Below are positions 30,560 through 64,000 of a DNA stretch of 64,000 nucleotides, piece by piece (position 1 is the stretch's first letter; every line of letters begins with the position of its first letter). The DNA comes from a phage: NCBI GenBank assembly GCA_032430995.1, contig GCA_032430995.1_3952.1. The stretch is one strand, 5' to 3'. The notes beneath the pieces were generated by a model. That model worked only from the letters and a program-made list of their open reading frames with translations, was not told the DNA's origin and ran no database searches. The position numbers and the translations under genes are program-made.

Positions 30560-30638
30560 TCCCTTGTTGACTGATTGTTAAGATGGTGTTAATATTCTTT
30601 ATAGGTATTCTCACCATCTTGGCTGATGAGGTGATTAA

Positions 30639-31205: not shown

Positions 31206-31211
31206 AATTTA

Positions 31212-31240
31212 AGGCTCCCGTAAAAAGGAGCCTTTTTTGT
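31212..31240. terminator. bidirectional intrinsic terminator between convergent late and early blocks
   Basis: GGCTCC-CGTAAAAA-GGAGCC hairpin with T runs on both sides. Confidence 0.7.
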
Positions 31241-31242
31241 TT

Positions 31243-32142: not shown

Positions 32143-32143
32143 A

Positions 32144-32689: not shown

Positions 32690-32946
32690 TTTGTAAACCC
32701 TTTCTTAATGAACCAGTTGATAACATTCTTCACAGCTTTATTGCTATGGTAGATTAAGTGTGGTGTAGGTTGGTATGAACCATAAGCCCAGAAAGCAATG
32801 ATTTCATTACACTCTGTACACCTTGTACTCTCTTCAGCGATATGACCGTTGACTATTTCACTTACCTCGCCTTGCAAGTCTGTACACCCACAATGTGGAC
32901 ATCGGATAGGTGTTCCGTCAGGCTCATAGCAGTGTTCAATTTTCAT
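32686..32946 (-). CDS. zinc-ribbon protein (4 Cys)
   Basis: 86 aa with CPHC...C...CTEC arrangement. Confidence 0.45.
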   Translation of the reverse strand: MKIEHCYEPDGTPIRCPHCGCTDLQGEVSEIVNGHIAEESTRCTECNEIIAFWAYGSYQPTPHLIYHSNKAVKNVINWFIKKGFTK

Positions 32947-33462
32947 TTATTTAACCTCAAAAACTGGTTCAAGAACCAATATAAAGTCTACACAGTCATC
33001 TTCTTCATCCAGAATACCATCAAAGTTCTTAGGAACGAAGTCGAAGAGGCTCATCACAAAACAGTCAGAAGTAACCCTGATAGTTCCTCCAATGTTCTCT
33101 ACAGTCAACACTGTACGACTTTCTTTTACCTCCCTCAGAAGATTACTCACAAAGTCATCTAAGAAGTACTTCATCAGTGACTTAAAACCTTTAGGATAAT
33201 CTGTACCAGAGTATGTTTCAATCTGAGGTACAAGCTTAACATTTATACTAGTCTTTGTTAAGAACGTGCTAGAGAACATACTATCAGGTAGCTTACAAAC
33301 AGTCTTTCCAGTACCTTCATGTTCAATCTCAACAAAACCAGCTTCATCGCCACATGTAACTATTTTAAAAGATGCTTCATTATCACCCTGTGAAGCCATA
33401 AACTTTTTAAGCATCACTTTAAGGAAATCTGCATGAGCATCTTGTAAGTATATATCAATCAT
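32947..33462 (-). CDS. hypothetical protein
   Basis: 171 aa ORF in minus-strand early block. Confidence 0.5.
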   Translation of the reverse strand: MIDIYLQDAHADFLKVMLKKFMASQGDNEASFKIVTCGDEAGFVEIEHEGTGKTVCKLPDSMFSSTFLTKTSINVKLVPQIETYSGTDYPKGFKSLMKYFLDDFVSNLLREVKESRTVLTVENIGGTIRVTSDCFVMSLFDFVPKNFDGILDEEDDCVDFILVLEPVFEVK

Positions 33463-33475
33463 AATTCATTACCTA

Positions 33476-33835
33476 TTATGGGAACAGACATTTGATGTCA
33501 TCGTTTTTGAAAACGAAGCTTGTGTAGTTGTGACCGTCAACATCCAGCCAAACAGCCTGAACATCTACACCATCAAGATTGTGGTAAAGCTCTTTGATGA
33601 AGTGGTCTTTCACAATCTGGCTGCTAGTTGTCTCCAGCTTAATGTTAGAGATTGCCGAACCTACAGCCATATAACCCATGACACGTTTCTTCTCAGTATG
33701 CTTAATCTTACCATCTTTGTAAGCCATAATGAGATTGGAGAGAATCTTCACACCATAATACTTTTCAAGGTGAGTAGGTGCACCATAAAAGCCTAATGCA
33801 AAGTTTTCAGAGTGGATAATGTTTTCACGTTTCAT
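33476..33835 (-). CDS. hypothetical protein
   Basis: 119 aa ORF. Confidence 0.5.
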   Translation of the reverse strand: MKRENIIHSENFALGFYGAPTHLEKYYGVKILSNLIMAYKDGKIKHTEKKRVMGYMAVGSAISNIKLETTSSQIVKDHFIKELYHNLDGVDVQAVWLDVDGHNYTSFVFKNDDIKCLFP

Positions 33836-33836
33836 A

Positions 33837-34166
33837 TTAATCTGCCAGCCTTAAATTAAAATTAACACCAAATTTTTCGCATACTTCCAACATATACTCA
33901 AGCGAGACATTTCCAGTGAGGTGGATTATGTTGGATACACGAGCCTGAGAGATACCACAAATTTTAGCAACTTGCTCTTGAGAAAGACCTCTGGATTTAA
34001 TCTCTCTCTTAAAACGATGTGCAACGAAATCTCTCATTTCGTCTACATCCATTGGACAAATATAACTCTCCATTTCAGCCTCTCTGTCAGCCTCCCAATC
34101 ATCTTGTGGAGCATAAGGGTCAAAAACCTCATTCATCTTTCTTCTTCCGTTTGCGTGAAGTGTCAA
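33837..34166 (-). CDS. helix-turn-helix DNA-binding protein (XRE-like, putative)
   Basis: 109 aa; C-terminal segment LSQEQVAKICGISQARVSNI resembles HTH. Confidence 0.5.
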   Translation of the reverse strand: MTLHANGRRKMNEVFDPYAPQDDWEADREAEMESYICPMDVDEMRDFVAHRFKREIKSRGLSQEQVAKICGISQARVSNIIHLTGNVSLEYMLEVCEKFGVNFNLRLAD

Positions 34167-34341
34167 TCAATGAATCTATGTTTGTAGCCCTAACCTTTTC
34201 ACGTTCATCGTTAAGATAATCGTCAAGAATCTTTTCAATCTGTGAATCATCTTGACAGATAACTGTAAAGACTGTAAAGCCGTCTGTATCATCAATTATC
34301 TTACCATAACCGCTTCTGGGATGTAACTTTTTAAGAGCCAT
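34129..34341 (-). CDS. hypothetical small protein
   Basis: 70 aa ORF overlapping neighbours. Confidence 0.35.
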   Translation of the reverse strand: MALKKLHPRSGYGKIIDDTDGFTVFTVICQDDSQIEKILDDYLNDEREKVRATNIDSLIDTSRKRKKKDE

Positions 34342-34342
34342 A

Positions 34343-34726
34343 TCAAATACCTGTGCAGCTTCTGTTTTCTAAGAAATACTCAACACCATACATAGCTTTT
34401 TGCATCAAATCTTCTTTAAACTGAATACGATGATTGAGCATAGCCTGTACATCAATATCATCAGGGTGCTTCTCTTTAATGTTTGCAGATTGCAGGAAAT
34501 ACTCTGCAAGAACGCGATATTGATAGCCAGTCACCTTATCAGTCATCTCTGTTAAAGACTCTTCAGAGATTGGTTTAAGTAGTTCGCCATTAGCTAGAGC
34601 AACACCTTTAACAATCTGACAAGTGTCTTCTGGAACACCTGATAAGTCCACATTTGGAAGTTCTGTTGCATTGACTGGTAAATTCATTGCCATAACCATT
34701 GCAGCAGCTAATAAAATCTTTTTCAT
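34343..34726 (-). CDS. secreted/periplasmic protein with signal peptide
   Basis: 127 aa; N-terminus MKKILLAAAMVMAMNLPVNATE is a classical Sec signal peptide. Confidence 0.55.
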   Translation of the reverse strand: MKKILLAAAMVMAMNLPVNATELPNVDLSGVPEDTCQIVKGVALANGELLKPISEESLTEMTDKVTGYQYRVLAEYFLQSANIKEKHPDDIDVQAMLNHRIQFKEDLMQKAMYGVEYFLENRSCTGI

Positions 34727-34817
34727 AATGACCTCAAAGTTATATTAAATTTTGTATTACATTGAGTATAAAAATAAGCTATAACACCTGACTTGTCAAC
34801 AGATTTTATAGCTTATT

Positions 34818-35092
34818 TGGCAGATTTTTTATAAGGCTACTGCCATCCTTCCATACCTCACCACACAAGACCAGACCATGCCGTACTCCACATCACCGTA
34901 CATCACTTAAAAACCCTTTTCAAAGACTCTTAAGTGATGTAATCGAATTTTTATGTAGCTCCGATTAACTACCCATACCATACAAAGCCATACCCAACCA
35001 AACATTACCGCACCATACAGAACCGTACCTAACCTGACATAGCCGCACCTTACCTTGTTAAAAGACCCTCTTAAAAGACCTTTTAAAAAGGA
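34818..35092. repeat. G-poor composite repeat region, copy 1 (shares modules with 36226-36495)
   Basis: shared blocks: GGCAGATTTTT..GGCTACTGCCATCC..CCATACC; hairpin CATCACTTAAAAACCC...TTAAGTGATG; TGTAGCT..ACTACCCATACC; TTAAAAGACCCTCTTAAAAGACCTTTTAAAAAGG. Confidence 0.75.
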
Positions 35093-35118
35093 GCCTCCGA
35101 AGAGGCTGCCTAGTCAAC

Positions 35119-35559
35119 TTAGAAAGGTTTTCTGCGTTGCTTGTTAATGTTAGCTTTCATAGCAGCTAAGTGGTTTTGCTGTTCAATTAGTCGTGAACGT
35201 TCTTGGTGGCTAAGTGCCATAGTGTTCACATTCTCAATCGCTTGAGTAGCTTGCTTTAAAGCACGACCAATTTTACCAGACATTTTGCGTTTTGCAATAG
35301 TTGCTTGATGCTTAGGTTCAACCACACGATAACCAACACCCATTGAAGCAACCAGATAAATCTTCTCTTCTTTAAGAAGCTTCTCAATAAACTTCTCAAG
35401 TCGGTTTAGGCGTGTAAGTGCATAAGCCTTCATTTCATCTTCGTACTTAACAATGTCACCTTGATAAGTTGGCTTCACAATACCTAAGAAGGTATCCATC
35501 TCAGAATGTGATACAGTGTCACCGTAACTAAACTTTGCTGCTAATGCTTTTGTATTCAT
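35119..35559 (-). CDS. hypothetical basic protein (cassette gene 2)
   Basis: 146 aa, Lys/Arg-rich C-terminus. Confidence 0.5.
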   Translation of the reverse strand: MNTKALAAKFSYGDTVSHSEMDTFLGIVKPTYQGDIVKYEDEMKAYALTRLNRLEKFIEKLLKEEKIYLVASMGVGYRVVEPKHQATIAKRKMSGKIGRALKQATQAIENVNTMALSHQERSRLIEQQNHLAAMKANINKQRRKPF

Positions 35560-35561
35560 AA

Positions 35562-36167
<606 letters not shown>

Positions 36168-36225
36168 TTAGTTGATTGTTAAGTTGTTTGTAAAGAACCC
36201 TCAACAGAGGACTCTTTAGAAACTT

Positions 36226-36495
36226 GGTAGATTTTTAACGTGGCTACTACCATCCACCCATACCGCGACACACCGAACCAGACCTTACACCACCTTACAC
36301 CACCCCACCTCATTAAAAGACCCTCTTAAAAGGCCTTTTAAAAAGGTAAGTCTCATTTTAATGTAGCTGAGACTAACTACCCATACCTCACATCACCGCA
36401 CCATACTACACCTGACACCACCTTACACCACCGCACCATACCTGACCGAGCTACACATCACTTAAAAACCCTCTTAGAAAGACTCTTAAGTGATG
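36226..36495. repeat. G-poor composite repeat region, copy 2
   Basis: same modules as copy 1 but in permuted order; plus strand nearly devoid of G over about 250 bp. Confidence 0.75.
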
Positions 36496-36710
36496 CTGGT
36501 GAGTACCTGTTGGTTTATGCTGCTCAGTATACTCACCAAATTTTCTATGTCAACAGCTTTTTATATAAAAGTCCTGATAGCTATATGTGTCACGAAACAA
36601 AAGATTGTAAACAAGACACCCATTGCAAAAGATGTGTCCAAAAGCTTACTTGCAACGTATGACAATACAAAGACAACCAGTATAAACAGAATGACTGTAC
36701 TGAACATAGT

Positions 36711-37850
36711 TTATTCATAATCCCTAATAACTAGCCCGACAGGAAACTGTAAAGAACCCTTACGAGTCATCTTCTGGAACTGAACCGTTAAAGGCTTCCC
36801 AATAAACTCTTCAGGATGCTCAGCAAGATACTGTTTCTTCTCATGAGTAGTCTTCCATGAGACATCTACAAAGACGTTAGGAAGAGTCTCTACAACGAAC
36901 TTGCCATGACCACGCTTATCAGTCTTTACACCAGTCACTTTAAACTCTTCAGTGTGCATCTTCTTGTGCTTAATCAAGAAGTATGAACGGTGACAGCACT
37001 CATAGAAGGAGTCTTCAGAGATTGAACGGTACATTGCACCTTCAAACTTAGCTTCAACCCACTTATCATGAGCTTCATCAAACTCTTCCCAAGAATTTAC
37101 ACGACGAGACTTAACAGGAACAACTTTACAGCCGTCTCTAAAGTCATTCAATGGTGAAGTCTCAATAATATCTCTACGCTCAGGCCACGTCTTAGTACTG
37201 TCACAGATATCATACCAGTAAAACTTAAGTAGATGACGGTCAGGATTGTCTTCATTTTTAATCATAGAGACAATATCTTCTAAGTCCCACCCATGAGCAT
37301 AAATCTCACCATCAAATTCATCAACATCTTTGTGGAGCCTTAACATTGCCATAATGTCAGGTATTAGCTCAGTGGGGATTTTATAAACAGTATTCTCACG
37401 AGAGTATGCTGTAAATACACTACCAATGCTTAAGTGTCTTGAAATTCTACAACGGACACCATCAAGTTTTGGTTGAGCGTCAGCAGGGAACTTCAGATAC
37501 TTTGCATGACTAACCTTTGCAGCATCATGAGCAAGCTGTACACCTACCTTCTCAGTATTCTGTGCAGACTCTTTTGTGTAAGCATAACCTTTGCGGTCAA
37601 CTTGTTTTTTATACTTAGCAGCAACTTCAAAGAGAGCTTGTTGTTCAGCGTTACGCTCATTCTTTTTACCGATGTTTTTAGGTTCTGCTGTATACTCTTC
37701 AAACATCATCTTGCCATTTTCTTTGCCATACGTGGTAACAACTTTGTCACCTACAGCGACACATGACCAGACGTTAAAAGAGCCATCTTTATTTTGTTTG
37801 TATAGAATTGTCATTTTATTCCTCTGAGTGATACAAAGTATTGCAAGCAT
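36711..37850 (-). CDS. ATP-dependent DNA ligase (putative)
   Basis: 379 aa; nucleotidyltransferase motif I KLDGVR (KxDGxR). Confidence 0.6.
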   Translation of the reverse strand: MLAILCITQRNKMTILYKQNKDGSFNVWSCVAVGDKVVTTYGKENGKMMFEEYTAEPKNIGKKNERNAEQQALFEVAAKYKKQVDRKGYAYTKESAQNTEKVGVQLAHDAAKVSHAKYLKFPADAQPKLDGVRCRISRHLSIGSVFTAYSRENTVYKIPTELIPDIMAMLRLHKDVDEFDGEIYAHGWDLEDIVSMIKNEDNPDRHLLKFYWYDICDSTKTWPERRDIIETSPLNDFRDGCKVVPVKSRRVNSWEEFDEAHDKWVEAKFEGAMYRSISEDSFYECCHRSYFLIKHKKMHTEEFKVTGVKTDKRGHGKFVVETLPNVFVDVSWKTTHEKKQYLAEHPEEFIGKPLTVQFQKMTRKGSLQFPVGLVIRDYE

Positions 37851-38007
37851 TACATGCGTAAAGCTCTAAGTCATTTTTATCTGGTTTATGAAAACAGTTT
37901 GCTCCGCAGTGGCAACGAAATGGCTTTCCACCAACTGTAAGGATGAAGGATTGAACCTTTCCATCAGGAGTTCGTACAGCATTTTTATGTTTATCTTCTT
38001 TGTTCAT
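37816..38007 (-). CDS. small zinc-ribbon protein
   Basis: 63 aa; CHC...C...C..C pattern; paralog of 38377-38547. Confidence 0.45.
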   Translation of the reverse strand: MNKEDKHKNAVRTPDGKVQSFILTVGGKPFRCHCGANCFHKPDKNDLELYACNACNTLYHSEE

Positions 38008-38068
38008 TTTATCTCTTGCCTCACAAGCTATGCAACCTTTTGAGTAGAAGTAGTGCCAAGCACAACCA

Positions 38069-38335
38069 TCAAAGCTCTCTTTCGTGATTAATTGAATTTA
38101 CTAATTCCATGTGTTTTTCGTAGAAACATAAACATTTTTTATCTTGCTCATTTATGTAGCTCTCATAAAATTCTGGTGATTCTGGTCTTTCACCAAATGA
38201 AATAACCTTTAGGTAGTACTTCCCATATGTAGAGCTATCTAACCAAGAGTCAAATAGTAATTTCTTAGTATTAGTCTTTGGAGGGATTACCAGACTTTTC
38301 TCATACAATCCCTTCATTTCTTGAGTTATCTTCAT
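38069..38335 (-). CDS. hypothetical protein
   Basis: 88 aa; AAGGAT RBS within tandem-repeat leader. Confidence 0.45.
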   Translation of the reverse strand: MKITQEMKGLYEKSLVIPPKTNTKKLLFDSWLDSSTYGKYYLKVISFGERPESPEFYESYINEQDKKCLCFYEKHMELVNSINHEREL

Positions 38336-38349
38336 TGCATATCCTTAAT

Positions 38350-38382
38350 CTTACCTAAGAACCTTACCTAAGAACCTTACCC
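38350..38382. repeat. 13 bp tandem repeat (CTTACCTAAGAAC x2.5)
   Basis: direct tandem copies in the leader of gene 38069-38335 (minus). Confidence 0.7.
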
Positions 38383-38547
38383 ACAGTTATTACACTCGTA
38401 TATGTCTAACTTTGTGTTATCAGGTTTGTGAAAACAGTTTGACCCACAACGACACCGGAATAGCTTACCATCAACACGAAGAATGAATGTTTCAAGCTCA
38501 CCATCTTCTGTAAGAACTGCGTTCTTAAATTTATCTTCTACAGTCAT
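38377..38547 (-). CDS. small zinc-ribbon protein (paralog of 37816-38007; below ORF-track length cutoff)
   Basis: own translation of minus strand: MTVEDKFKNAVLTEDGELETFILRVDGKLFRCRCGSNCFHKPDNTKLDIYECNNCG; start overlaps upstream stop (ATGA). Confidence 0.4.
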   Translation of the reverse strand: MTVEDKFKNAVLTEDGELETFILRVDGKLFRCRCGSNCFHKPDNTKLDIYECNNCG

Positions 38548-38750
38548 TTTCTCTTACCACCAATCTCTACGTCAATAACTTGAACATCACCAGCAACATC
38601 AAACTTATGAATGATGCTTTCCACAGTGTAAGTCCAACCATCGATTCTAACCAACTCACCCTCTCGTGGGACGATTGGGTTACGTTGAGCTACCGTTGTA
38701 GTGGAGTGAACAACATCATAACAGTAGATATAGTTTATTAAGACCTGCAT
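38544..38750 (-). CDS. hypothetical protein (start placed at internal Met)
   Basis: track ORF 38544-38849 overlaps upstream ORF; internal ATG at 38750 removes the overlap. Confidence 0.3.
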   Translation of the reverse strand: MQVLINYIYCYDVVHSTTTVAQRNPIVPREGELVRIDGWTYTVESIIHKFDVAGDVQVIDVEIGGKRK

Positions 38751-38760
38751 CGTAAAAACC

Positions 38761-38994
38761 TCACTCAATAACCGTAGTGTGTGATTGGCTATTTTTACCA
38801 TATCTATAAGATGTTGTTGTTTGAGAGTTTGGACATCTGACAACAACAATATCTGTGCTTATTGCATCCCCATTTAACTTATAGACTTTGCAATCTTGCA
38901 TCTCTGGTGGGAGGCTATAAGAAGCGTTTTTGTCCTCGTAAGATGGGTTACAGCCAGACAGAAAGATAACACCAACACAATTACTGCTTTCCAC
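38761..38994 (-). CDS. small Cys-rich protein with possible lipobox (lipoprotein candidate)
   Basis: 77 aa; N-terminal VGVIFLSGC resembles a lipobox but n-region lacks basic residues. Confidence 0.3.
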   Translation of the reverse strand: MESSNCVGVIFLSGCNPSYEDKNASYSLPPEMQDCKVYKLNGDAISTDIVVVRCPNSQTTTSYRYGKNSQSHTTVIE

Positions 38995-39183
38995 ATAATA
39001 CTTCTCCTATTACTGTTCACGATGTTCTACCTCTCTGTACGTTCGTCGATAGTTTATAATAAGCTGTGCTAATTCATTGCTTTTAACATCTGAACGTAGC
39101 AGTTGCCAATCAAAACCTTTACCGACTCTTCCATATAAACTAAATAATTTTACTTTGCGTTTCATTTTGATGTCCCCCAATAC

Positions 39184-39411
39184 TCAGAGGTCAATACTAA
39201 TACGTTCACCCTTAAGGACTCCTGTACGGTCCCTTGCAATCTTACCGTCAACAATAAGGATATGTGCAGACCTTAAAGATTCACTATTAAAACCTTTTAC
39301 GAACTTACTAGGCATAACCACAATAAGCATCTCCTGAATCAACTCTGGAGTATAGCAGTTGTCGTGAAGTTGCTGAATAACGTCTGCAAGTGTCATTTTT
39401 GATGTCTCCAA
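39184..39411 (-). CDS. hypothetical protein
   Basis: 75 aa ORF. Confidence 0.4.
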   Translation of the reverse strand: METSKMTLADVIQQLHDNCYTPELIQEMLIVVMPSKFVKGFNSESLRSAHILIVDGKIARDRTGVLKGERISIDL

Positions 39412-39602
39412 TACTCAATGTCAATAAGTTCTTGTGCAATGCTTTTCAGATTACCTTTCAAGAAAACCTTCTCAGAACCTGAAAGAGATGAATTGTCAAT
39501 CAACCTGTTCATTCTCTCAAACAACTTCTGCTTACGATTCTTGATAGTTTCCTTTGAAGCACCTTTCATCATCGCTGCATGGGTTCTTCCACGGTGGCTC
39601 AT
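39393..39602 (-). CDS. hypothetical basic protein
   Basis: 69 aa ORF. Confidence 0.4.
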   Translation of the reverse strand: MSHRGRTHAAMMKGASKETIKNRKQKLFERMNRLIDNSSLSGSEKVFLKGNLKSIAQELIDIEYWRHQK

Positions 39603-39663
39603 AAGCCCTCCTATATAAGATATTGTATAAGGTACTCTTCCATGAGCACCTTGTCAATACTAA

Positions 39664-42363
39664 TTAGTGTACTTCAAGCCAGCTTTTACCAACCTTACCA
39701 GTACCTGTTACAAGTGTTTCTTTCTTTAGACCTAAGTTCTTAGAAGCTTGTCCATAATACCAGTCGGTAACTGCTTTCACTTCTGCCGTCATACTTTCTG
39801 GACATTCCCAACTTGTTTCATCGTGATATGCACAGAGTAAACGAGCACCAATAGCTGGTTGACGACCATTTAACTTCATCAAACCTTCGTCAATCATACG
39901 ACGACAAGCAAGGTTAATTGCCTCATTTTGAATCTGAGCCTCTGAACCCATCAAAAGATAGTTCAACAGTTTGTGTGGAGATTTACACCACAACCAAGCT
40001 CCAGCAACCTTTACAAATCCCCCTTTAGAGATTGCAGCGGTCTTACCAAACACCTCTTCAAGTGCCTTTTTAGTTGCTTTGTAGTCAGCTTCCAAGTCAT
40101 CCAGCAGCTTCTTAATCTTAGGTAAACGAATAAAGTAAGTCTGTTTAGTCAGTGCACCTTCCTGAGTAGTTGCAGCTTTAATCGTCTTAGCAAACTTCTC
40201 ATCACCTGCACCGAACAGCAGTGCATAGATACCATTCTTAGCTTTCTTACGACCCTTGCTAATCTCATGGAGAAGGTTCTCATCCTGAGTAGCTCGACAA
40301 GTCAAGATATCCTGCTCATCATTCAAGCTAAAGTAAATGCTGTTCAGTGTGTGTGCATCAGTCCCTGAATAGACAACGTACAGGTCATTCTCAGAGTCAT
40401 AGCGGAGGTACTTATCAATCTCTGGGTTGAGGTACTCATCAAAGTGTTTGCAGTAATAGCGTCCATCTTCTTGACGAATAAACTCAATCTCTTCTTTACC
40501 TTGCGTTACCGCTTTGGTGAAGTCTTTGTCACCCATAAAGTTACAAAGAAGAACTAGCTGGGCTGAGTTCATATCTACAGAGACGACGTTAGTACCTTCT
40601 TCACAAATCCACACTGCCCTCATTGGTTCCCCATAGACAGCAGCACCAGACGGTACGTTTACAATACCATATTGTGTCATACGTCCAGTTGAAGTACCAA
40701 ATACCATTGCACCAGCACTAAGGCGACCATCTGGACGAATCTGGTTTAGCCAACCTTTTTCATCATCCTTTGAGTTCTCAATGGTTCTGCGTCGGTGCAT
40801 CAAAGTATAGTATTTAGCAATCTTCTGTCCAAGCTCACCTTCAATCGTATCATAAGAAGATTCAGTAAGTTTTGGTGAAGTACGGATTAAGCAAGGTTCA
40901 AGCAAATCCGTGTACTTCTTCACAGACCAGTTATGTTCGATGTACTGGACACCTTCGTGTTCAACATAACTCAACCCACACCGTTCAACCATCTCCTGCC
41001 ACTTAGGATGCTTTGTAATCATCTTTTTGTTGTCTTTGAAACGACAAACTTTGACAGGGCGACCGTCTGAATCTTTCTTGTAGTTCCAGTCATCTGGAAT
41101 CCAACCAACTGATTTCAAGTAGTCTTTAACAACTGCTACCTGAGTCATACGAGAAACTTCAAACTCAATTGGTGTATATGGTGCATCAATCAATCCTGTG
41201 TAGCGACTTGACTCAAGCTCAAAGTGGTTAACAACATGACTGTTATAGTACTTCACAGTTTTAACTGTTTTTACTGGCTTCCAGTCTTTGCATTTCTTAC
41301 CAATCTTTGCATTCAACTCATTGCAAATTGCACGAGCATCCTTCATTGCTACAAAACCTTCCTTGTACTCTTCACCAGTTACAGAGTTGGTTGGTGTATA
41401 GCAATTTCTCTTTTCAATGTTAAAAATCTTTGTAGTTGGCTTACCAAATGGCTTGATTTCATATGTCTGCATCTCACCGTTACGTACCTGCTGACGATAC
41501 TTTGTCTTAGGGTACTTGGTAATTCTCTTCAGTCCATCTGCGTGACCAAATGCTTCAACATACTCATTCCAAGCTTTTGCAAACTCTTCTCCAGTGACTT
41601 TACCTTTGGTCTTAATAGTTGGAGGAAGATGTGGTTCAACTTCCGAAGCAAGCTCATTAGTCAACTTGTCAAGTTCCTTTACATGGAACTCCATAAGCTC
41701 TTTATCAGCTTTCCAACCATTGATAGCTTGTTGACTCATCCAGAAAGATGTTTCTTTAGCTCGCATGTAGGTTTCATAAGTGTCTATGCCACACTTCTTA
41801 AGCTTGAGATATTCATTATCAAGTGCCCGTTTAGTTTTGGCGTTAATACGGATATCTTCTACAACACGAGTGAAGATTTCTGCATTCCACACACCCCAAT
41901 GTTCAATCTCTGGTTTACGAACACCAACACGAGCACCCCATGCAGCCAAACCATGAGCACCTTTATAACCCTTTGGAGTTGGTCTATCCATCCACTGAAC
42001 ACGAGACTGGATAAGAGAATCCTGAAAGAAATTACTCCACGGCTTACATTTTGGATTATCAAAGTTCCATAAATCCGGTGCAATGTGATTGAAGACCCAC
42101 CAGTCATAACCGAGGCCGTTATGGATACAAAGTCGTTTTGCCTTTAACGCAAACTCAACACCTTCACGTAAACCACCCTTAATGTACTTAGTGTACTTGT
42201 GACCGAGGATAGGCTCATCTGTAAAGACCCATACAGGTGGCTCTTCATCGTCAGATTTATAATCTGCGAAAGCCATTACGTGAACTTTAGTGAACTCAAG
42301 GAGTAAACCATCAGTTTCTGTATCACCAACTAAATGTAAGTTTTTAAAATCTACGTTTTCCAT
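39664..42363 (-). CDS. DNA polymerase, family A, with 3'-5' exonuclease domain
   Basis: Exo I motif DTETDGL; pol motif B-like K..NGIYALLFGAG and motif C-like YHDE; start set to ATG with GAGGGAG RBS (track start 42393). Confidence 0.8.
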   Translation of the reverse strand: MENVDFKNLHLVGDTETDGLLLEFTKVHVMAFADYKSDDEEPPVWVFTDEPILGHKYTKYIKGGLREGVEFALKAKRLCIHNGLGYDWWVFNHIAPDLWNFDNPKCKPWSNFFQDSLIQSRVQWMDRPTPKGYKGAHGLAAWGARVGVRKPEIEHWGVWNAEIFTRVVEDIRINAKTKRALDNEYLKLKKCGIDTYETYMRAKETSFWMSQQAINGWKADKELMEFHVKELDKLTNELASEVEPHLPPTIKTKGKVTGEEFAKAWNEYVEAFGHADGLKRITKYPKTKYRQQVRNGEMQTYEIKPFGKPTTKIFNIEKRNCYTPTNSVTGEEYKEGFVAMKDARAICNELNAKIGKKCKDWKPVKTVKTVKYYNSHVVNHFELESSRYTGLIDAPYTPIEFEVSRMTQVAVVKDYLKSVGWIPDDWNYKKDSDGRPVKVCRFKDNKKMITKHPKWQEMVERCGLSYVEHEGVQYIEHNWSVKKYTDLLEPCLIRTSPKLTESSYDTIEGELGQKIAKYYTLMHRRRTIENSKDDEKGWLNQIRPDGRLSAGAMVFGTSTGRMTQYGIVNVPSGAAVYGEPMRAVWICEEGTNVVSVDMNSAQLVLLCNFMGDKDFTKAVTQGKEEIEFIRQEDGRYYCKHFDEYLNPEIDKYLRYDSENDLYVVYSGTDAHTLNSIYFSLNDEQDILTCRATQDENLLHEISKGRKKAKNGIYALLFGAGDEKFAKTIKAATTQEGALTKQTYFIRLPKIKKLLDDLEADYKATKKALEEVFGKTAAISKGGFVKVAGAWLWCKSPHKLLNYLLMGSEAQIQNEAINLACRRMIDEGLMKLNGRQPAIGARLLCAYHDETSWECPESMTAEVKAVTDWYYGQASKNLGLKKETLVTGTGKVGKSWLEVH

Positions 42364-58996: not shown

Positions 58997-59005
58997 GGTA
59001 ACTAG

Positions 59006-59491
59006 ATGAATTACATGGAGATTCGACCATTTGACACAGCTAATGGTGAAGGGGTTCGTGTAAGCCTCTTCGTAGCTGGTTGTAAGCATCACTGTGAAGG
59101 TTGCTTTAATAAGGAATCTTGGAAGTTTAATGCTGGTAAAGAGTTCACTTATGCAAACCTTTATGGCGTCATTAAGTTAATGGATGATAATGCCATCAGT
59201 GGGCTGTCAATACTTGGTGGAGAACCTCTGGATGATAGAAACATTCAAGAGGTTACCAACATATGCAAACGTATTAAAACCGTTTACCCAGAAAAATCTA
59301 TCTGGCTCTGGACAGGTTTTCAGTTACATGAAAAAATTCACCTTGATGTGATGAAATATGTTGACGTGGTGATTGATGGTAAGTATGATTCATCTAAACC
59401 AACAGTTAAACCATATCGTGGTTCTGATAACCAAAACCTCTGGAGAAAAGAGTATGGGTGGCAAGGTGATTGTCAGTGGAGAGCAGAGTGA
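59006..59491 (+). CDS. nrdG: anaerobic ribonucleotide reductase activating protein (radical SAM)
   Basis: 161 aa; CxxxCxxC cluster (GCKHHCEGC) near N-terminus. Confidence 0.7.
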   Translation: MNYMEIRPFDTANGEGVRVSLFVAGCKHHCEGCFNKESWKFNAGKEFTYANLYGVIKLMDDNAISGLSILGGEPLDDRNIQEVTNICKRIKTVYPEKSIWLWTGFQLHEKIHLDVMKYVDVVIDGKYDSSKPTVKPYRGSDNQNLWRKEYGWQGDCQWRAE

Positions 59492-59573
59492 TTATTCTGG
59501 CAAATGGACTAAGGTATAACTCCAATTGGTATCACTGAAGAAGAACTTCATAAGTTCTGTATTAAACTTTAAT

Positions 59574-59589
59574 GAGAGAGAGAGAGAGA
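59574..59589. repeat. (GA)8 dinucleotide microsatellite
   Basis: GAGAGAGAGAGAGAGA overlapping the first possible start codon/leader of the next gene. Confidence 0.9.
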
Positions 59590-59595
59590 CTAAAA

Positions 59596-59862
59596 ATGGG
59601 AATTTTAGGTAATATGAAAGCTGGATTCTTGAAGGCACTGGCAAAAGCAGCAGCAATTGTTTCTATGACTGGAAAGCAAGTCGGTGTAGATGCTTCAGCG
59701 GTTGCACAGGTTCTTACAAGCCAAATTGAACAGCAGCCTTACATCTATGTAGGCCGTGGCAAAGGTGGTAAGAAACAAGCCCACCGTCCGTCTGGTGCAG
59801 CAGCTATTAAACGAGCAGCTAAGAAAGCTCGTAACCGTAAACGTAATAAGAAGGCTAAATAA
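59596..59862 (+). CDS. hypothetical highly basic protein
   Basis: Lys/Arg-rich C-terminus; start placed at ATG 59596 after the GA tract (upstream in-frame ATG at 59572 also possible). Confidence 0.4.
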   Translation: MGILGNMKAGFLKALAKAAAIVSMTGKQVGVDASAVAQVLTSQIEQQPYIYVGRGKGGKKQAHRPSGAAAIKRAAKKARNRKRNKKAK

Positions 59863-59864
59863 TC

Positions 59865-60185
59865 ATGAGCAAAGTTTATAACACTCGTAAATTACAGATT
59901 TTCTTACTGTGCCAGTTTATGGCTAGAGAGCATAACTCCTACTATTGTGGTACAGGATTCATTAGTGATAATGATGGCTCATATCTCCCATTCAAAGAGG
60001 CTGTAAAACTCTTCAATGAAGAGAAAAGCTCTGAGAAAGATATTGAAAAGGTTAAATTAACATATAGTAAGAAAGATAAGAAGATTATCTGCCTAGATAA
60101 CTTTGTGAAAGTTACCAAAGAAACTAAAGAGTTAATGGAAGAAAGTGAAATTCCATTCACAAGAATCTTGAAAGTAGCTCAGTAA
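59865..60185 (+). CDS. hypothetical protein
   Basis: 106 aa ORF. Confidence 0.4.
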   Translation: MSKVYNTRKLQIFLLCQFMAREHNSYYCGTGFISDNDGSYLPFKEAVKLFNEEKSSEKDIEKVKLTYSKKDKKIICLDNFVKVTKETKELMEESEIPFTRILKVAQ

Positions 60186-60196
60186 GCAGATACTAT

Positions 60197-60222
60197 AAGG
60201 GAACTGTAAAGGTTCCCTTTTT
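60197..60222 (+). terminator. intrinsic terminator
   Basis: GGGAAC-TGTAAAG-GTTCCC hairpin followed by TTTTTATTTT. Confidence 0.65.
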
Positions 60223-60236
60223 ATTTTGGAGATAAT

Positions 60237-60752
60237 ATGTATCTGTCAAATCTGAAACGTTCTGCTGCAATGTCAGTGTTAAGACTCAGTTTTGAGGAAC
60301 GTCAAGAGTTCATTGACTCCCACCAATACGACCCTTCCAACTCCAATCACATGATTCTCTGGAATCGTGAGAGTACTCGTGAAAGAGCATTATTTCGATA
60401 TTACCCACACTACACCATAGACAACCTGTATGAATGTTTTGTTGTGAAGAACACCATTACAGTACTCAATAAACTTTGCAGATACACAGGCAGTCAATCC
60501 TTCACATTAGGCCACCACAAGCCTGTGACAAAAGGTGGTGAACATCACTGTGCAAACTGGTTTATTCAGACTAAAGCTGATAACCAGAAGCAAGGAGATA
60601 GCCTTTTAAGTACCCCTAAGATGACCTATGAAGAGCAAGAGAGATATATCAAAAATAATATGCCAGATGTGCTTGACAACAACTATACAGATTTGGCAAT
60701 ATCTCTCCTGTTGAAGTTCGAGATAGTTTATAGGGCAACTTACAATGGCTAA
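60237..60752 (+). CDS. HNH endonuclease (putative homing endonuclease)
   Basis: 171 aa; His-Me finger block LGHHKPVTKGGEHHCANWFIQTKADNQKQGD. Confidence 0.55.
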   Translation: MYLSNLKRSAAMSVLRLSFEERQEFIDSHQYDPSNSNHMILWNRESTRERALFRYYPHYTIDNLYECFVVKNTITVLNKLCRYTGSQSFTLGHHKPVTKGGEHHCANWFIQTKADNQKQGDSLLSTPKMTYEEQERYIKNNMPDVLDNNYTDLAISLLLKFEIVYRATYNG

Positions 60753-61023
60753 AGAAAAGTGGGAGATTTTACCATTAGTCAGTGAAGGAGGTAATGGTTG
60801 TGAAATGTACATGATACGTGGTCATGTTCCAGAGCCAATTGCACTTGAGATGGTAAACAACTTTACAGATGGTTCTTACAAAGACTTAGGCGAACCAACT
60901 GTCAAGCAACAATGGGTTAAACCTGTACCAGACAGCACAGGTAACTGTAGTGTACTTTATCACGTTGTAGACCCTGCAAAATGCAAATCTGCAATGGCAG
61001 TAACAAACATAACCTTTGATTGA
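60745..61023 (+). CDS. hypothetical protein
   Basis: 92 aa ORF. Confidence 0.4.
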   Translation: MAKEKWEILPLVSEGGNGCEMYMIRGHVPEPIALEMVNNFTDGSYKDLGEPTVKQQWVKPVPDSTGNCSVLYHVVDPAKCKSAMAVTNITFD

Positions 61024-61034
61024 GAGAGAAAACT

Positions 61035-61916
61035 ATGAAAACATCTATCCGTGTTACAGTTCATTCACCAACTAAAGGAACTCATGAAGAAGAGTTTAAC
61101 ATCATCCAATTTCCTTCTGGTGAGATTGGTGGACACTTTTCGCCAGAGTTTGTTGATTTCACTGCTTATGCAGCATCATCCATCAACAATGTGATTATGA
61201 TTGTAAAAGGTTATGATAAGGATACATTGTTTGCTGTGGCACTTGCTAAAGAAGCAATTGATGATTTAATTCCTCATGATTATGCTTTAAAGACTGTCAT
61301 CTTTTACTACTTACCAAATGCACGTTATGACCGTCACATGTTTAAAGGCGACGCAGCAGCTTTAAAGGTTTTTGCTAAACAGGTAAATGCAATGGGATTT
61401 GGTGCAGTCTGTGCAGTTGACCCTCACAGCTATGTACCAGATAACCTGTTTAACTGCTTCCAGAGTATTCCTCAAAAGGAAATTGCAGTCCACTATGCAA
61501 ATGACCCACTGATTGATTACTTAGTAGCCCCAGATGCAGGTGCTGCTAAGAAGATTGCAGAGACTGCTAAAGAGGTGGATAAACCATATATCACAATGTC
61601 TAAAGTACGCAACCTTAAGACTGGTGAAATTACTGGTATGCGAATCCTTGATGATGTTGATTTGACAGATAAAACCGTCATGATTCTGGATGATATCTGT
61701 GATGGTGGTCGAACCTTCATAGAAGCAGCTAAACATCTTCGTGAAGCAGGTGCAAAACGTGTGGAACTCTATGTAACACACGGTATCTTCTCTAAAGATG
61801 TTGAAAACCTTCTTGGCAATGGCATTGACCACATCTACACTACAAACTCTTTAGGGGAAGCTAAAGACCGTGGCTTAACACATTATGGTCAAGTTACTGT
61901 AGCAAACCTTGATTGA
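61035..61916 (+). CDS. ribose-phosphate pyrophosphokinase family protein (PRPP synthetase-like; candidate ADP-ribose pyrophosphokinase of an NAD+ salvage pair)
   Basis: PRPP-binding loop VMILDDICDGGRTF; adjacent to NAMPT-like gene; ATG 61035 with GAGAGAGAA RBS. Confidence 0.6.
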   Translation: MKTSIRVTVHSPTKGTHEEEFNIIQFPSGEIGGHFSPEFVDFTAYAASSINNVIMIVKGYDKDTLFAVALAKEAIDDLIPHDYALKTVIFYYLPNARYDRHMFKGDAAALKVFAKQVNAMGFGAVCAVDPHSYVPDNLFNCFQSIPQKEIAVHYANDPLIDYLVAPDAGAAKKIAETAKEVDKPYITMSKVRNLKTGEITGMRILDDVDLTDKTVMILDDICDGGRTFIEAAKHLREAGAKRVELYVTHGIFSKDVENLLGNGIDHIYTTNSLGEAKDRGLTHYGQVTVANLD

Positions 61917-61924
61917 AACTTTAT

Positions 61925-61946
61925 AGGGGCTTAAAAGCCCCATTTT
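61925..61946 (+). terminator. terminator-like hairpin between the PRPP-synthetase-like and NAMPT-like genes
   Basis: GGGGC-TTAAAA-GCCCC followed by ATTTT. Confidence 0.45.
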
Positions 61947-61961
61947 GAGAGAGATTAAAAG

Positions 61962-63743
61962 ATGACTAAATCACTTTATGCAGTACCAGCAGGTTTAAAC
62001 GCAGATGCTTACAAATCTGGTCATGTTTACCAGTACCCTAGTGCAACAGAGTACTTGATGTTCAACCTGACACCACGTAGTGACAAATGGTTTAACAGCC
62101 CCTTAGCAATTGATGGTGTAGTAGCTTTTGGTATTCAACGTTTCGTTAAAGATTACTTGATAGACCACTGGAACGCCACTTTCTTTGAACGTGATAAAAA
62201 AGAAGCCATTGATGAAATCTTAGAAGTCATGAATGGTGTTCTGGGTAAAGATGCTATCGGTCGAGAGCATTGGGAAGCACTTCACGACTTAGGTTATCTA
62301 CCAGTTGAAGTATACGCTGTAGAAGAAGGTACAGTTGTTCCTATGCGTGTACCAATGATTGTCTTCCAGAACACTGTTTCAGGTTTCCATTGGATAGCGG
62401 GATATCTGGAAGATGCTTTCTCTGCTGAGATTTGGAAGGCTTGTACCATTGCAACTATTGCATTGCATTATAAACGCATCTGTAAGAAGTGGGCTGACCT
62501 TACTTGCGACAATGACTTACATTTACCTTATCAGTGCCATGACTTTGCTATGCGTGGTATGTCCGGCTTTACTGATGACGCATTTAACGCTGTAGGCCAC
62601 TTAACCAGCTTTAAAGGGACTGATAGCTTCCCTGCTGTATATACAGCTAAACGCATCTACGGACAGTCTTACCTAGTCTCTGATATTGGTGGTTCTGTAC
62701 CAGCCACTGAACACTCTGTAATGTGTGCAAACATTGCTTGGGAAGGTGGTAATGAGTTGGTTGAAGAAGAAAGACGCTTTAAAGGTGAGTTGCAAACCTT
62801 CCGTCGCTTCTTAACAGAAACTTATCCAACTGGTATTGCAAGTGTTGTTTCAGACACTTATAACTTCTGGAGAACTGTGTCAGAAATCTTACCAGCACTC
62901 CGTAAAGAAATTATGGAACGTGATGGCAAACTGGTAATTCGTCCTGACTCTGGAGACCCTGTACACATTGTCACAGGTTATAAAGCAATCCACTTAGAGT
63001 GTGCTAAAAAGGCTTATTATGAGCACCTAAGCAATCTGGAAGCCAGTGACACAATGCTGAATGCTGTTCTGAACATGAAGCTTGAAAACATCAGCTATGG
63101 TATTGCTGGATGGCTACTGTCAGAAGGCTACGAAATGGTTGTTGACAGAGAAGACTTTGAAGTTGCTGATACAGTGATGTTGAAGAACGCTTATATGGTT
63201 GGTTCTGCAAACGTTGTAACACGCCCTGTAGCAGAGATTGATGGAGCTATTAAGACCTTGTATAACATCTTTGGAGGAACTATTAACTCTAAAGGTTTTA
63301 AGGTACTGGATGAGCACATTGGCCTTATCTATGGCGACTCTATCACGTTGGAACGTGCAAACGAAATCCTGAAGCGTCTGTATGAAATGGGGTTTGCAAG
63401 CTCTAACGTGGTGTTTGGTGTAGGCTCTTACACTTACCAGTACATGACTCGTGACACCTTTGCATTTGCTGTCAAAGCAACTCTTGCAAGCATTGGTGGC
63501 AAAGAGATTATGCTTGCAAAAGACCCTAAAACAGATAGTGGTGTTAAGAAATCTGCCTTTGGTGGTGTAGCACCTATGTGGGATGGTGAGAATTTGAAAG
63601 CTGTAGATGGCTATGGATTCCAGAGCTTTGCAGATGCACTTGAACATCCAGCTTGTGCTTTACGTTTAGTCTTTAGCGACTCTGAGCAGTACGGTTACAC
63701 AACTCTTGGTGATATTCGAAATAATATTGACAAGCAGCTTTAA
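61962..63743 (+). CDS. nicotinamide phosphoribosyltransferase family protein (NadV/NAMPT-like)
   Basis: 593 aa; N-terminal DAYKSGHVYQYPSATEYLMFNLTPR matches the NAMPT-family D-x-YK-x-x-H-x-x-QYP block. Confidence 0.7.
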   Translation: MTKSLYAVPAGLNADAYKSGHVYQYPSATEYLMFNLTPRSDKWFNSPLAIDGVVAFGIQRFVKDYLIDHWNATFFERDKKEAIDEILEVMNGVLGKDAIGREHWEALHDLGYLPVEVYAVEEGTVVPMRVPMIVFQNTVSGFHWIAGYLEDAFSAEIWKACTIATIALHYKRICKKWADLTCDNDLHLPYQCHDFAMRGMSGFTDDAFNAVGHLTSFKGTDSFPAVYTAKRIYGQSYLVSDIGGSVPATEHSVMCANIAWEGGNELVEEERRFKGELQTFRRFLTETYPTGIASVVSDTYNFWRTVSEILPALRKEIMERDGKLVIRPDSGDPVHIVTGYKAIHLECAKKAYYEHLSNLEASDTMLNAVLNMKLENISYGIAGWLLSEGYEMVVDREDFEVADTVMLKNAYMVGSANVVTRPVAEIDGAIKTLYNIFGGTINSKGFKVLDEHIGLIYGDSITLERANEILKRLYEMGFASSNVVFGVGSYTYQYMTRDTFAFAVKATLASIGGKEIMLAKDPKTDSGVKKSAFGGVAPMWDGENLKAVDGYGFQSFADALEHPACALRLVFSDSEQYGYTTLGDIRNNIDKQL

Positions 63744-63756
63744 AAGTATATGATAA

Positions 63757-63780
63757 AAGGCTCCTACGGGAGCCTTTTTA
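63757..63780 (+). terminator. intrinsic terminator
   Basis: GGCTCC-TACG-GGAGCC hairpin followed by TTTTT. Confidence 0.65.
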
Positions 63781-63796
63781 ATTTCTGGAGAAGATT

Positions 63797-64000
63797 ATGA
63801 AAATCAAAGAGATGAACATCAACATTATCTTAGAAGAACGTTGGGAGAACATTAAGAAACCTGAAGATGGTAAAAAGTTCCTTAACAAAATTTTAGTAGC
63901 AGCTAAAGAAGAACTGACTGGCAAGATTGCAGCAGCAGTCACAATAAAAGTTTGTGTAAAAGGTCTTCCAGACAACCACCAATTTGCGCTTGACGAGTTT
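63797..64000 (+). CDS. hypothetical protein, 5' partial (runs off window end)
   Basis: ATG with GGAGAAG RBS; open frame to end of window. Confidence 0.35.
   Translation, partial: MKIKEMNINIILEERWENIKKPEDGKKFLNKILVAAKEELTGKIAAAVTIKVCVKGLPDNHQFALDEF

Follow-up and report, generated by a model that had tools for sequence, protein, structure and literature searches.

The adps-namat gene pair of a wV8-type Felixounavirus is very probably a NARP1 counter-defence operon

The NARP1 pathway of NAD+ reconstitution was defined from an operon of phage Bas63 (JohannRWettstein, MZ501086), where the deletion of genes 79-80 renders the phage about 20-fold more sensitive to the SIR2-HerA system (Osterman et al. 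2024). Restoration of NAD+ by these two genes takes place even when the host is ΔpncC ΔnadR, and ADPR-PP was detected in that work. The enzymology of the pathway has been demonstrated with the enzymes from SpβL1, ICP1 and P. foliorum, the Adps of Bas63 itself never having been purified. The same two-gene adps-namat operon is found in SpβL1, for whose Namat crystal structures are available (9W5W/9W5X), and in ICP1, the source of the structurally characterized Adps. Extended versions of this operon are also known, viz. NARP1-AP of Vibrio phage Gary (Adps-Adpp-Namat), which includes a Macro-domain phosphatase, and the RyDEP NARP1 loci, as in mycobacteriophage DyoEdafos, which include an RyR-domain glycosidase. 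The NAMPT fold and its nicotinamide/ribose-phosphate core are in addition common to NARP2 (KVP40-type Nampt + Nmnat) and to the classical NadV (H. ducreyi NadV, HdNadV; PDB 9KE8), and the PRPS fold to the class I Prs of E. coli.

The sequence considered here (the window) is a whole stretch of 64,000 nucleotides from an E. coli phage of the FelixO1/wV8 type; it represents a wV8-type Felixounavirus, with 99.2% identity to phage SP22 over positions 61000-64000. The same locus is carried by 216 phage records, and in some relatives HNH genes have invaded it. The original prediction placed a Prs-family gene directly upstream of a NAMPT-family gene, and both the open reading frames and the family matches bear this out (Table 1), the two genes being adjacent on the same strand. 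A TTG codon at 61020, upstream of the ATG, is an alternative start for the first of them. The Adps protein matches the Pfam families Pribosyltran and Pribosyl_synth as well as phrog_619 (E 2e-96), and the Namat protein matches NAPRTase, NAMPT_N and NF006629 as well as phrog_448 (E 2e-202); these matches are full-length, highly significant and far beyond chance. Protein lengths, synteny and sequence identity mark the two genes as orthologues of Bas63 gp79/gp80 (bas63_0079/0080), i.e. of the validated NARP1 operon. The two phages belong to the same genus and have in common the gene order, the flanking synteny (NrdG ... 0077-0078-adps-namat), the lengths of both proteins and all of the mapped functional residues, and the proteins align without gaps, showing 78% identity for Adps and 97% identity for Namat. 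However, the N-terminal domain of Adps (about 180 residues, aa 1-180) represents a different allele, with only 58-75% identity to Bas63, and the DNA similarity begins only at window position 61310; further, namat of Bas63 is followed by an additional 345-nt gene (0081) ahead of the next gene, and this additional gene is missing from the window. The SpβL1 and ICP1 proteins are more distant (46-47% identity for Namat and 31-35% for Adps), but the Namat catalytic core and the signature of its selectivity-clamp helix (SCH), as well as the catalytic Lys, the acceptor residues and the truncated C-terminus of Adps, are common to all of them. In view of this orthology, and of the Adps and Namat signatures described below, the NAD+-reconstituting function proposed in the original prediction is upheld, and it is very probable that the region 61035-63743 is a NARP1 counter-defence operon.

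Table 1. Coordinates of the features of the adps-namat locus in the window.
Feature	Position	Strand	Basis or remark
adps, ADP-ribose pyrophosphokinase (PRPS-like), 293 aa, ATG start	61035..61916	+	ORF call, phrog_619, TIGR01251, Bas63_0079 orthology
Adps Lys190 codon, equivalent to catalytic Lys185 (β-hairpin) of ICP1 Adps	61602..61604	+	Alignment mapping
Adps PP-loop region, D219-D220-I-C-D223-G-G-R-T-F228 (ICP1 D212-F221)	61689..61718	+	Alignment
Hairpin GGGGC-N6-GCCCC within the spacer (45 nt) from adps to namat	61926..61941	+	Folding of the spacer, -12.6 kcal/mol
namat, nicotinamide ADP-ribose transferase (NAMPT-like), 593 aa	61962..63743	+	ORF, phrog_448, Bas63_0080 orthology, PDB match
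Namat selectivity-clamp loop (SCL), aa 37-51 TPRSDKWFNSPLAID, K42-W43 at the adenine-stacking position	62070..62114	+	Alignment
Namat His251 codon (ATEHSV), putative equivalent of the NAMPT catalytic phospho-histidine	62712..62714	+	Motif alignment
Namat insertion 1 (aa ~257-275), helical, length-variable	62730..62786	+	About 15 aa, missing in Namat of both SpβL1 and ICP1
Namat insertion 2 (aa 340-427), α/β mini-domain, Ounavirinae-type phages	62979..63242	+	
Namat SCH signature GSYTYQYMTRD, aa 488-498	63423..63455	+	Consensus match
Intrinsic-terminator-like hairpin and T-run after namat, closing the unit	63755..63778	+	Folding

If the operon were of an extended type, then one or more of the flanking genes (60237-60752, 60745-61023, or the gene from 63797) would form part of the NAD+ pathway, similar to Adpp or RyDEP. 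NARP1 operons with accessory genes are already known, no terminator was called between the upstream gene pair and adps, and this gene pair is syntenic with adps-namat in both Felixounavirus and Mooglevirus, and the equivalent slots are also filled in Kolesnikvirus, whose gene 111 bears the annotation Felix O1-like. The upstream genes lie between adps on one side and a terminator-like hairpin at 60197-60219 on the other. However, no Macro domain (Adpp) was detected in the five flanking open reading frames of the window, their orthologues or Bas63_0081 even at a Pfam E-value ≤ 1, nor was an RyR domain (RyDEP) found in the flanking frames at this threshold, and these genes were thus rejected as NARP1 accessories of either kind; the PHROG families which they match have no assigned function. 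It is also of importance that deletion of only genes 79-80 of Bas63 gave the phenotype, and that two genes suffice when transplanted. In addition, tblastn matches to the 92-aa upstream protein are found only in 231 enterobacterial Ounavirinae records, as against 1395 records for Adps. Hence, a role of the flanking genes in the pathway is very unlikely, and the window operon differs from both NARP1-AP and the RyDEP loci in lacking, in or beside it, the Macro-domain phosphatase of the former and the RyR-domain glycosidase of the latter, while having the core in common with them. The suggestion that the partial gene which starts at ATG 63797 may belong to the same module did not hold up: this gene is probably not part of the NARP1 module, since a strong terminator separates it from namat and its adjacency is not conserved, an additional gene being present between them in Bas63 and in the Mooglevirus Maleficent. 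The terminator has a 10-bp stem with 5 G-C pairs (-17.1 kcal/mol), and terminators are annotated at the equivalent site in phiEa21-4 and other Felixounavirus records. An Rfam scan of positions 59000-64000 gave only a sub-threshold chance match overlapping this terminator (Atu_C8, 22.9 vs 50 bits), and a promoter scan revealed no enrichment (11 found vs 10.9 expected in shuffles). The stem of the hairpin within the adps-namat spacer is invariant in Bas63, SP22 and Maleficent, with variation confined to its loop and flanks, and this element is possibly a partial terminator or an RNA-stability element.

A different interpretation of the gene pair is that of classical salvage, in which a true PRPP synthetase and a NadV/Nampt would produce NMN, which is then converted into NAD+ via host NadR or PncC/NadD. 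All of the GenBank records describe the genes in this manner, viz. as ribose-phosphate pyrophosphokinase and nicotinamide/nicotinate phosphoribosyltransferase, and the models TIGR01251 and NF006629 exceed their cut-offs. However, for Adps, TIGR01251 is a broad subfamily model, which is passed with 119.9 bits against a cut-off of 113, whereas all of the NCBIfam Prs equivalog models are far under theirs, the best of them scoring 102 vs 296 bits. Compared with E. coli Prs, to which Adps shows 25% identity, the equivalents of R96, H131, D170 and D220-D221-x-x-D224 are kept, but the protein ends about 20 residues short of the Prs C-terminus and at the alignment level has no counterpart of AEAIRRISNEESISAMFEH; by this comparison, the C-terminal α11-α12 helices, which serve filament formation and regulation in Prs, are missing from Adps. 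The residues of ICP1 Adps of known importance can in turn be recognized in the window protein by alignment: F26, R97, H131, D167, K190, D219, D220, I221, C222, D223 and F228 correspond to ICP1 F18, R87, H121, D161, K185, D212-D216 and F221. Of these, R87, H121, D161, D212, D213 and D216 belong to the acceptor site, the change K185A in ICP1 Adps abolishes the formation of ADPR-PP (PMC13586617), F18 of the neighbouring protomer contacts the adenine of ADPR, and the DDICD motif together with the adenine-lid Phe is the same in both proteins. The PP loop reads DDICDGGRTF in the window, DDICDGAASF in ICP1 (the residues after DDICD thus being GGRT vs GAAS), DDMIDTGGTL in E. coli Prs and DDLSSFGGTF in SpβL1; a remodelled loop of the ICP1 C215-S220 type, which is conserved in Adps homologues, rather than the DTGGT loop of Prs that binds the phosphate of R5P, is therefore present in Adps, this criterion being a loose one since SpβL1 differs. 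The equivalent of ICP1 Phe92, the other residue in contact with the adenine of ADPR, is Met102 in the window and also in Bas63, whose enzyme is functional in vivo, while SpβL1 has a gap at this position.

The evidence from Namat points in the same direction. The PDB entries that match it best, by sequence as well as by fold, are those of SpβL1 Namat (9w5w/9w5x), with 428.8 bits as compared with 178 bits (Xcc Nampt) and 140 bits (mammalian NAMPT), and the AF2 model (mean pLDDT 93.6) has a TM-score on the target of 0.95 to 9w5x. The catalytic core is kept (D15, Y17, F195, R198, D221, A248, R327, D329, G458 and D459), the SpβL1 core counterparts being D13, Y15, F189, R192, D215, R306, D308, G360, D361 and the catalytic His. 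The latter residue, which is described as common to Namat and Nampt, by motif alignment probably corresponds to His251, which is invariant in an alignment of 52 sequences. The distinction between these enzymes lies in the adenine clamp, which is present in the window Namat and missing from HdNadV and Nampt. In Namats, the SCL carries either an Arg at position 3, or a Lys/Tyr followed by the stacking residue; SpβL1 uses Arg40, whereas the window has Lys-Trp. The sequence of this loop, inclusive of K42-W43, is the same as in the Bas63 Namat, for which the residue following the Lys has been modelled as the stacking residue (PMC12774641), and stacking is likewise predicted here. The SCH signature of the window fits the consensus published for Namat, GSXΦXΦXΦTRD, with aromatic side chains in positions 3 and 7, whereas the corresponding sequences of the controls, HdNadV (GAQTYQRNTRD) and Xcc Nampt (GGALLQKVDRD), do not have this motif, the two adenine-stacking aromatics being absent from HdNadV. 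Together with the activity of the Bas63 orthologues in a host lacking both pncC and nadR, and their production of ADPR-PP only when a NADase system is active, these observations make it highly improbable that the pair is a conventional salvage module. Namat does have a residual PRPP→NMN activity in vitro, and due to this some classical flux may persist.

A NARP2-type pathway, in which the second gene would be a Nampt acting with an NMN adenylyltransferase whose gene lies at another site of the genome, can be given almost no credence, for although phages carry enzymes of both kinds and Namat is a homologue of the NARP2 Nampts, the latter are found in phages without Adps, no phage with both pathways was found, and in the window it is an Adps gene, 45 nt upstream, that is the partner rather than Nmnat. 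A tblastn search of the window and the whole SP22 genome with NadR and NadD as queries, which is of limited sensitivity to very remote homologues, gave a best E-value of 0.34, and neither an open reading frame with the HxGH motif nor any such annotation was present in either sequence. The original prediction had stated that placement within the housekeeping Prs and NadV clades, together with an NMN adenylyltransferase gene elsewhere in the genome, would indicate the classical pathway; neither of these was found, and both NARP2 and classical salvage are unsupported for this phage on the basis of its gene content.

It was also correctly noted originally that the NAMPT-like protein is about 100 aa longer than a typical NadV, the window Namat having 593 aa, whereas the Namats of ICP1 and SpβL1, as well as HdNadV and bacterial homologues, have 488-496 aa. 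The extra residues are accounted for by two lineage-specific insertions, both of which are common to the functional Bas63 Namat, and they are a lineage-wide characteristic and not an anomaly of the window locus. Insertion 1 ranges from 5-43 residues across homologues, and the model has the helices H251-262 and H268-287 in this region. Insertion 2 (about 88 aa), a corresponding region of about 80 aa being absent from SpβL1 and ICP1 Namat, directly follows the β-strand bearing the ribose-binding residues R327/D329; it is confidently modelled as an autonomous α/β mini-domain, evolves faster than the Namat core and is restricted to the Ounavirinae-type phages. A search for a fold relative of this domain found none. 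When the 95-aa insertion alone was searched against a database of 5.8 billion proteins, a single match (a 54-aa fragment) was obtained, the short query limiting the word index, whereas the full-length Namat query retrieved many insertion-bearing homologues, and the result for the short query thus does not reflect true absence. That the insertion is a remnant of an intein or homing endonuclease was considered and rejected, as no Pfam match beyond NAPRTase and NAMPT_N is seen, a small α/β domain is modelled here with high confidence as part of Namat, and the functional Bas63 protein contains the insertion as well. That insertion 2 adds a function to Namat, instead of being neutral decoration, is unlikely, as is a role of the hairpin between adps and namat in setting the ratio in which the two enzymes are expressed.

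Based on the chemistry of the SpβL1 and ICP1 orthologues, from which we infer that of the window enzymes, the NARP1 operon would act as follows. If NAD+ is cut into ADP-ribose and nicotinamide by an NADase system of the host (e.g. SIR2-HerA/Nezha, type I Thoeris, DSR1/2 or SEFIR), then Adps would move the β,γ-pyrophosphate from ATP onto the 1'' position of ADP-ribose (ADPR + ATP → ADPR-PP + AMP), and Namat would exchange the pyrophosphate of ADPR-PP for nicotinamide, giving NAD+ directly (ADPR-PP + nicotinamide → NAD+ + PPi), such that neither an NMN intermediate nor an adenylyltransferase would be required. The anti-defence phenotype expected for the window pair is similarly based on that of the Bas63 Δ79-80 phage. 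For the window itself, the presence of the two genes, their orthology, the conservation of the tested residues and the absence of accessory and alternative-pathway genes are shown by the analysis. As it was in a phage of the same genus, with genes nearly identical to these, that the pathway was discovered, the pair is one that is already known, and its identification is correct but ordinary and conceptually nothing new; the sole question raised by the locus is whether the insertion domain of Namat, which is specific to this lineage, has a role. The identification is nonetheless of value for annotation, since GenBank still labels these genes as Prs/NadV or even as 'nadR'. Without Adpp, the NARP1 of this phage would probably be unable to use ADPR-1''-phosphate and thus would not counter aRES, as may be deduced from the aRES preprint. 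Against defences which convert NAD+ into ADPR and nicotinamide (SIR2-HerA, Thoeris I, DSR1/2, SEFIR and Kongming), it is predicted that this phage can escape, and this property could be of use in choosing therapeutic phages.

The PRPP-synthetase-like gene adps and the NAMPT-like gene namat are separated by a spacer of 45 nt on the same strand, and the ORF call confirms the coordinates that the original prediction gave for the pair. The family assignments made there are also correct. Adps matches the Pfam families Pribosyltran and Pribosyl_synth, the model TIGR01251 (119.9 bits; cut-off 113) and PHROG 619 'ribose-phosphate pyrophosphokinase' (E 2e-96), and Namat matches the Pfam families NAPRTase and NAMPT_N, the NCBIfam model NF006629 (468.5 bits) and PHROG 448 'nicotinamide phosphoribosyl transferase' (E 2e-202).

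Table. Genes and hairpins of the adps-namat locus
Feature	Coordinates	Strand	Remarks
Terminator-like hairpin	60197-60219		Upstream of the two small genes preceding adps
Two small overlapping genes	60237-60752 and 60745-61023		Abutting adps
adps, 293 aa	61035-61916	+	ORF call; alternative TTG start at 61020
Hairpin GGGGC-N6-GCCCC	61926-61941		In the adps-namat spacer
namat, 593 aa	61962-63743	+	ORF call
Terminator-like hairpin with T-run, strong	63755-63778		Directly 3' of namat

The locus belongs to the nucleotide-metabolism region and follows nrdD and nrdG. Over positions 61000-64000, identity is 99.2% to Escherichia phage SP22 (Felixounavirus wV8) and 90-98% to >200 other records of FelixO1-like phages, whose hosts are Escherichia, Salmonella and Shigella. 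NAD+ reconstitution pathway 1 (NARP1) was defined by Osterman et al. with another Felixounavirus, the BASEL phage Bas63 (JohannRWettstein), as the genetic model. In that work, loss of bas63_0079 (Adps) and bas63_0080 (Namat) in the Δ79-80 mutant raised the sensitivity of Bas63 to SIR2-HerA about 20-fold and put an end to NAD+ recovery, the wild-type phage still overcame the defence in a ΔpncC ΔnadR host, and ADPR-pyrophosphate (ADPR-PP) was seen only when the defence system and both genes were present together. The enzymology comes from the SpβL1 homologues, of which Adps converts ADPR and ATP to ADPR-PP and Namat forms NAD+ from ADPR-PP and nicotinamide. The Bas63 proteins have the same lengths as those of the window (293 and 593 aa) and align with them gap-free, with 78% identity for Adps (230/293) and 97% for Namat (578/593), and the gene order is also the same (viz. 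nrdG, three small ORFs, 0077, 0078, adps, namat). Since the two pairs are orthologous, the central proposal of an Adps/Namat NAD+ reconstitution module was right, and the window pair is almost certainly the NARP1 operon already described, in the phage genus of its discovery.

The diagnostic residues of both enzymes largely accord with this. For Adps, PMC13586617 reports Lys185 as catalytic, R87, H121, D161, D212, D213 and D216 as acceptor residues and F18 and F92 as contacts to the adenine; the PP loop is remodelled, and the C-terminal α11-α12 helices of Prs are lost. In the alignment, the window Adps has K190, R97, H131, D167, D219, D220, I221, C222, D223, F26 and F228, it stops before the Prs C-terminal helices, and its PP loop reads DDICDGGRT whereas that of E. 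coli Prs reads DDMIDTGGT. The sole differing residue is Met102 in place of F92, a Met also found in the functional Bas63 protein, and none of the NCBIfam Prs equivalog models comes near its cut-off. PMC12774641 defines Namat by three features: its catalytic core resembles that of Nampt; its adenine 'selectivity clamp' helix (SCH) has the motif GSXΦXΦXΦTRD, in which positions 3 and 7 are aromatic; and one more stacking residue comes from a variable loop (SCL). All core residues are kept in the aligned window protein (D15, Y17, F195, R198, D221, A248, R327, D329, G458 and D459), its SCL carries K42-W43, identical to Bas63, and its SCH motif is GSYTYQYMTRD, in contrast to GAQTYQRNTRD in the classical H. 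ducreyi NadV (HdNadV) and GGALLQKVDRD in Xanthomonas (Xcc) Nampt. Judged from these sequences, the motif does discriminate Namat from both. Among PDB sequences, SpβL1 Namat ranks first (428.8 bits), ahead of HdNadV (352), Xcc Nampt (178) and mammalian NAMPT (~140), and the AlphaFold2 model (mean pLDDT 93.6, pTM 0.91) gives the same ranking by fold, with a TM on target of 0.95 to the SpβL1 Namat structure 9w5x. Chromosomal homologues of 495-496 aa are present on multi-Mb contigs of Klebsiella, Cronobacter, Kosakonia, Phytobacter and Erwinia (P0070, P0074, P0075, P0080, P0084, P0085 and others); those examined (P0070, P0074, P0084 and P0113) have the clamp GS[FY]TYQYNTRD, of Namat rather than NadV type, which is consistent with the bacterial NARP1 homologues that have been reported.

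If the pair were a conventional salvage module, its proteins should fall within housekeeping clades and an NMN adenylyltransferase should be encoded elsewhere in the genome. This combination was not observed: with E. coli NadR and NadD as tblastn queries, the best E in the window and in the whole of the SP22 genome was 0.34, no ORF in either carries the HxGH nucleotidyltransferase motif, and both halves of the SP22 annotation lack an NMN adenylyltransferase gene. Osterman et al. also found no phages carrying NARP1 together with NARP2, the Nampt and NMN adenylyltransferase pathway. The known accessories of NARP1 are the Macro-domain phosphatase Adpp (NARP1-AP) and the RyR-domain glycosidase RyDEP; neither domain was detected at E ≤ 1 in the five ORFs flanking the pair or in Bas63_0081, and the window locus is therefore the bare two-gene core. 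From the aRES work, such a NARP1 should not counter defences leaving ADPR-1''-phosphate.

The partial ORF starting at ATG 63797 (phrog_4262, function unassigned), orthologous to bas63_0082 (62/68 identical), had been suggested as a possible further member. This is unlikely, because a strong terminator precedes it and its adjacency to namat is broken in Bas63, by an unrelated 345-nt gene (0081), and in Maleficent, which also has an extra gene there. In 63727-63778, a sequence in 11/12 agreement with the sigma-70 consensus (TTGACA-16-TATGAT) extends over the namat stop codon; with the hairpin directly following, its transcript would begin inside the hairpin, and promoter-like matches overall are not enriched over shuffles. 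The two small upstream genes, which overlap by 8 nt, show conserved synteny with adps-namat in both Felixounavirus and Mooglevirus, and Kolesnikvirus has genes in the corresponding slots. Co-transcription of the two with adps and namat is possible; the Bas63 phenotype does not need them. Homologues of the 92-aa upstream protein turned up only in enterobacterial Ounavirinae (231 records, versus 1395 with Adps). The 171-aa protein (60237-60752; phrog_3500, function unassigned) weakly resembles HNH endonucleases at aa 59-124, GHHKPVTKGGEHHCANW (phrog_2214, E 1.3e-4), and its gene keeps its position ahead of adps in Bas63 and Maleficent. The annotation of phiEa21-4 gene 111 notes similarity to a Felix O1 protein. 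Between nrdG and this block lies a 96-aa ORF (59572-59862; phrog_4425, function unassigned) with an extremely basic C-terminal tail (…KRAAKKARNRKRNKKAK). The spacer hairpin, followed by ATTTTGAGAGAG, the namat RBS, has a stem invariant across Bas63, SP22 and the Mooglevirus Maleficent while its loop and flanking bases vary, and it may act as a weak attenuator or an RNA-stability element, setting the Adps:Namat ratio.

In Adps, aa 1-180 (61035-61574) are only 58-75% identical to Bas63, as against 91-98% for the C-terminal ~110 aa, and DNA similarity starts only at ~61310, which indicates at least two alleles of the hexamer-core N-terminal domain in Felixounaviruses; the window has the common allele (≥95% in about 120 records). 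The excess of ~100 aa noticed earlier in Namat is real and, aligned with SpβL1 and ICP1 Namat, consists of two insertions (aa ~257-275 and aa 340-427), both shared with Bas63, Mooglevirus and Erwinia phage phiEa21-4. The larger, directly after the RPDSGDP strand, has tblastn matches in 254 phage records, all enterobacterial Ounavirinae. Confident models of it, both within Namat and by itself (pLDDT 92.4, pTM 0.81), show a β-α-α-α-β-β-α-β mini-domain, and its divergence is about double that of the core (e.g. 50% vs 87% identity for Mooglevirus-type sequences). Across 52 homologues the site holds 11 to 94 residues, of unrelated sequence in some lineages, and by these comparisons it is an insertion hot spot. 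P0098, P0099, P0116 and P0118 have there a ~91-aa insertion of unrelated sequence (9-13% identity; e.g. ...REDTPHGKCGD...YNRYDKQYYYIDG...), which suggests that this one structural hot spot has received insertions independently. The simplest reading of the larger insertion is a tolerated peripheral decoration; less probably, it may have a regulatory or docking role. PMC12774641 modelled Bas63 Namat, and a term search of its text does not return the word 'insertion'.

An HNH homing endonuclease is annotated inside the matching locus of MF370225 (ST11), NC_027337 (VpaE1), KP143762 (Mushroom) and AF320576 (FelixO1), where the matching stretch is ~470 bp longer; the window locus, unlike these, is without it. 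The ST11 Namat is annotated as two pieces flanking the endonuclease, and PHROGs 16547 and 15800 correspond to the N- and C-terminal Namat halves. Public annotations of the locus are inconsistent or wrong: the adps orthologue of SP22 (LC519489) is labelled 'nadR', several records name namat 'nicotinate phosphoribosyltransferase', and the neighbouring small ORFs go under the name 'baseplate distal hub subunit'. As NF006629 is an equivalog for 'nicotinate phosphoribosyltransferase' and passes its cut-off on Namat, automated pipelines will go on mis-naming this protein. Elsewhere in the window, GC skew turns negative at ~30000-42000, a minus-strand gene block (thyA, folA and others) in the SP22 annotation, and the flip reflects ordinary strand-switch architecture.

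The NARP1 locus of the window is thus already known, and it holds nothing new beyond residual curiosities, viz. the orphan domain inserted in Namat, the mosaicism of the Adps N-terminal domain and the conserved hairpin between the two cistrons.
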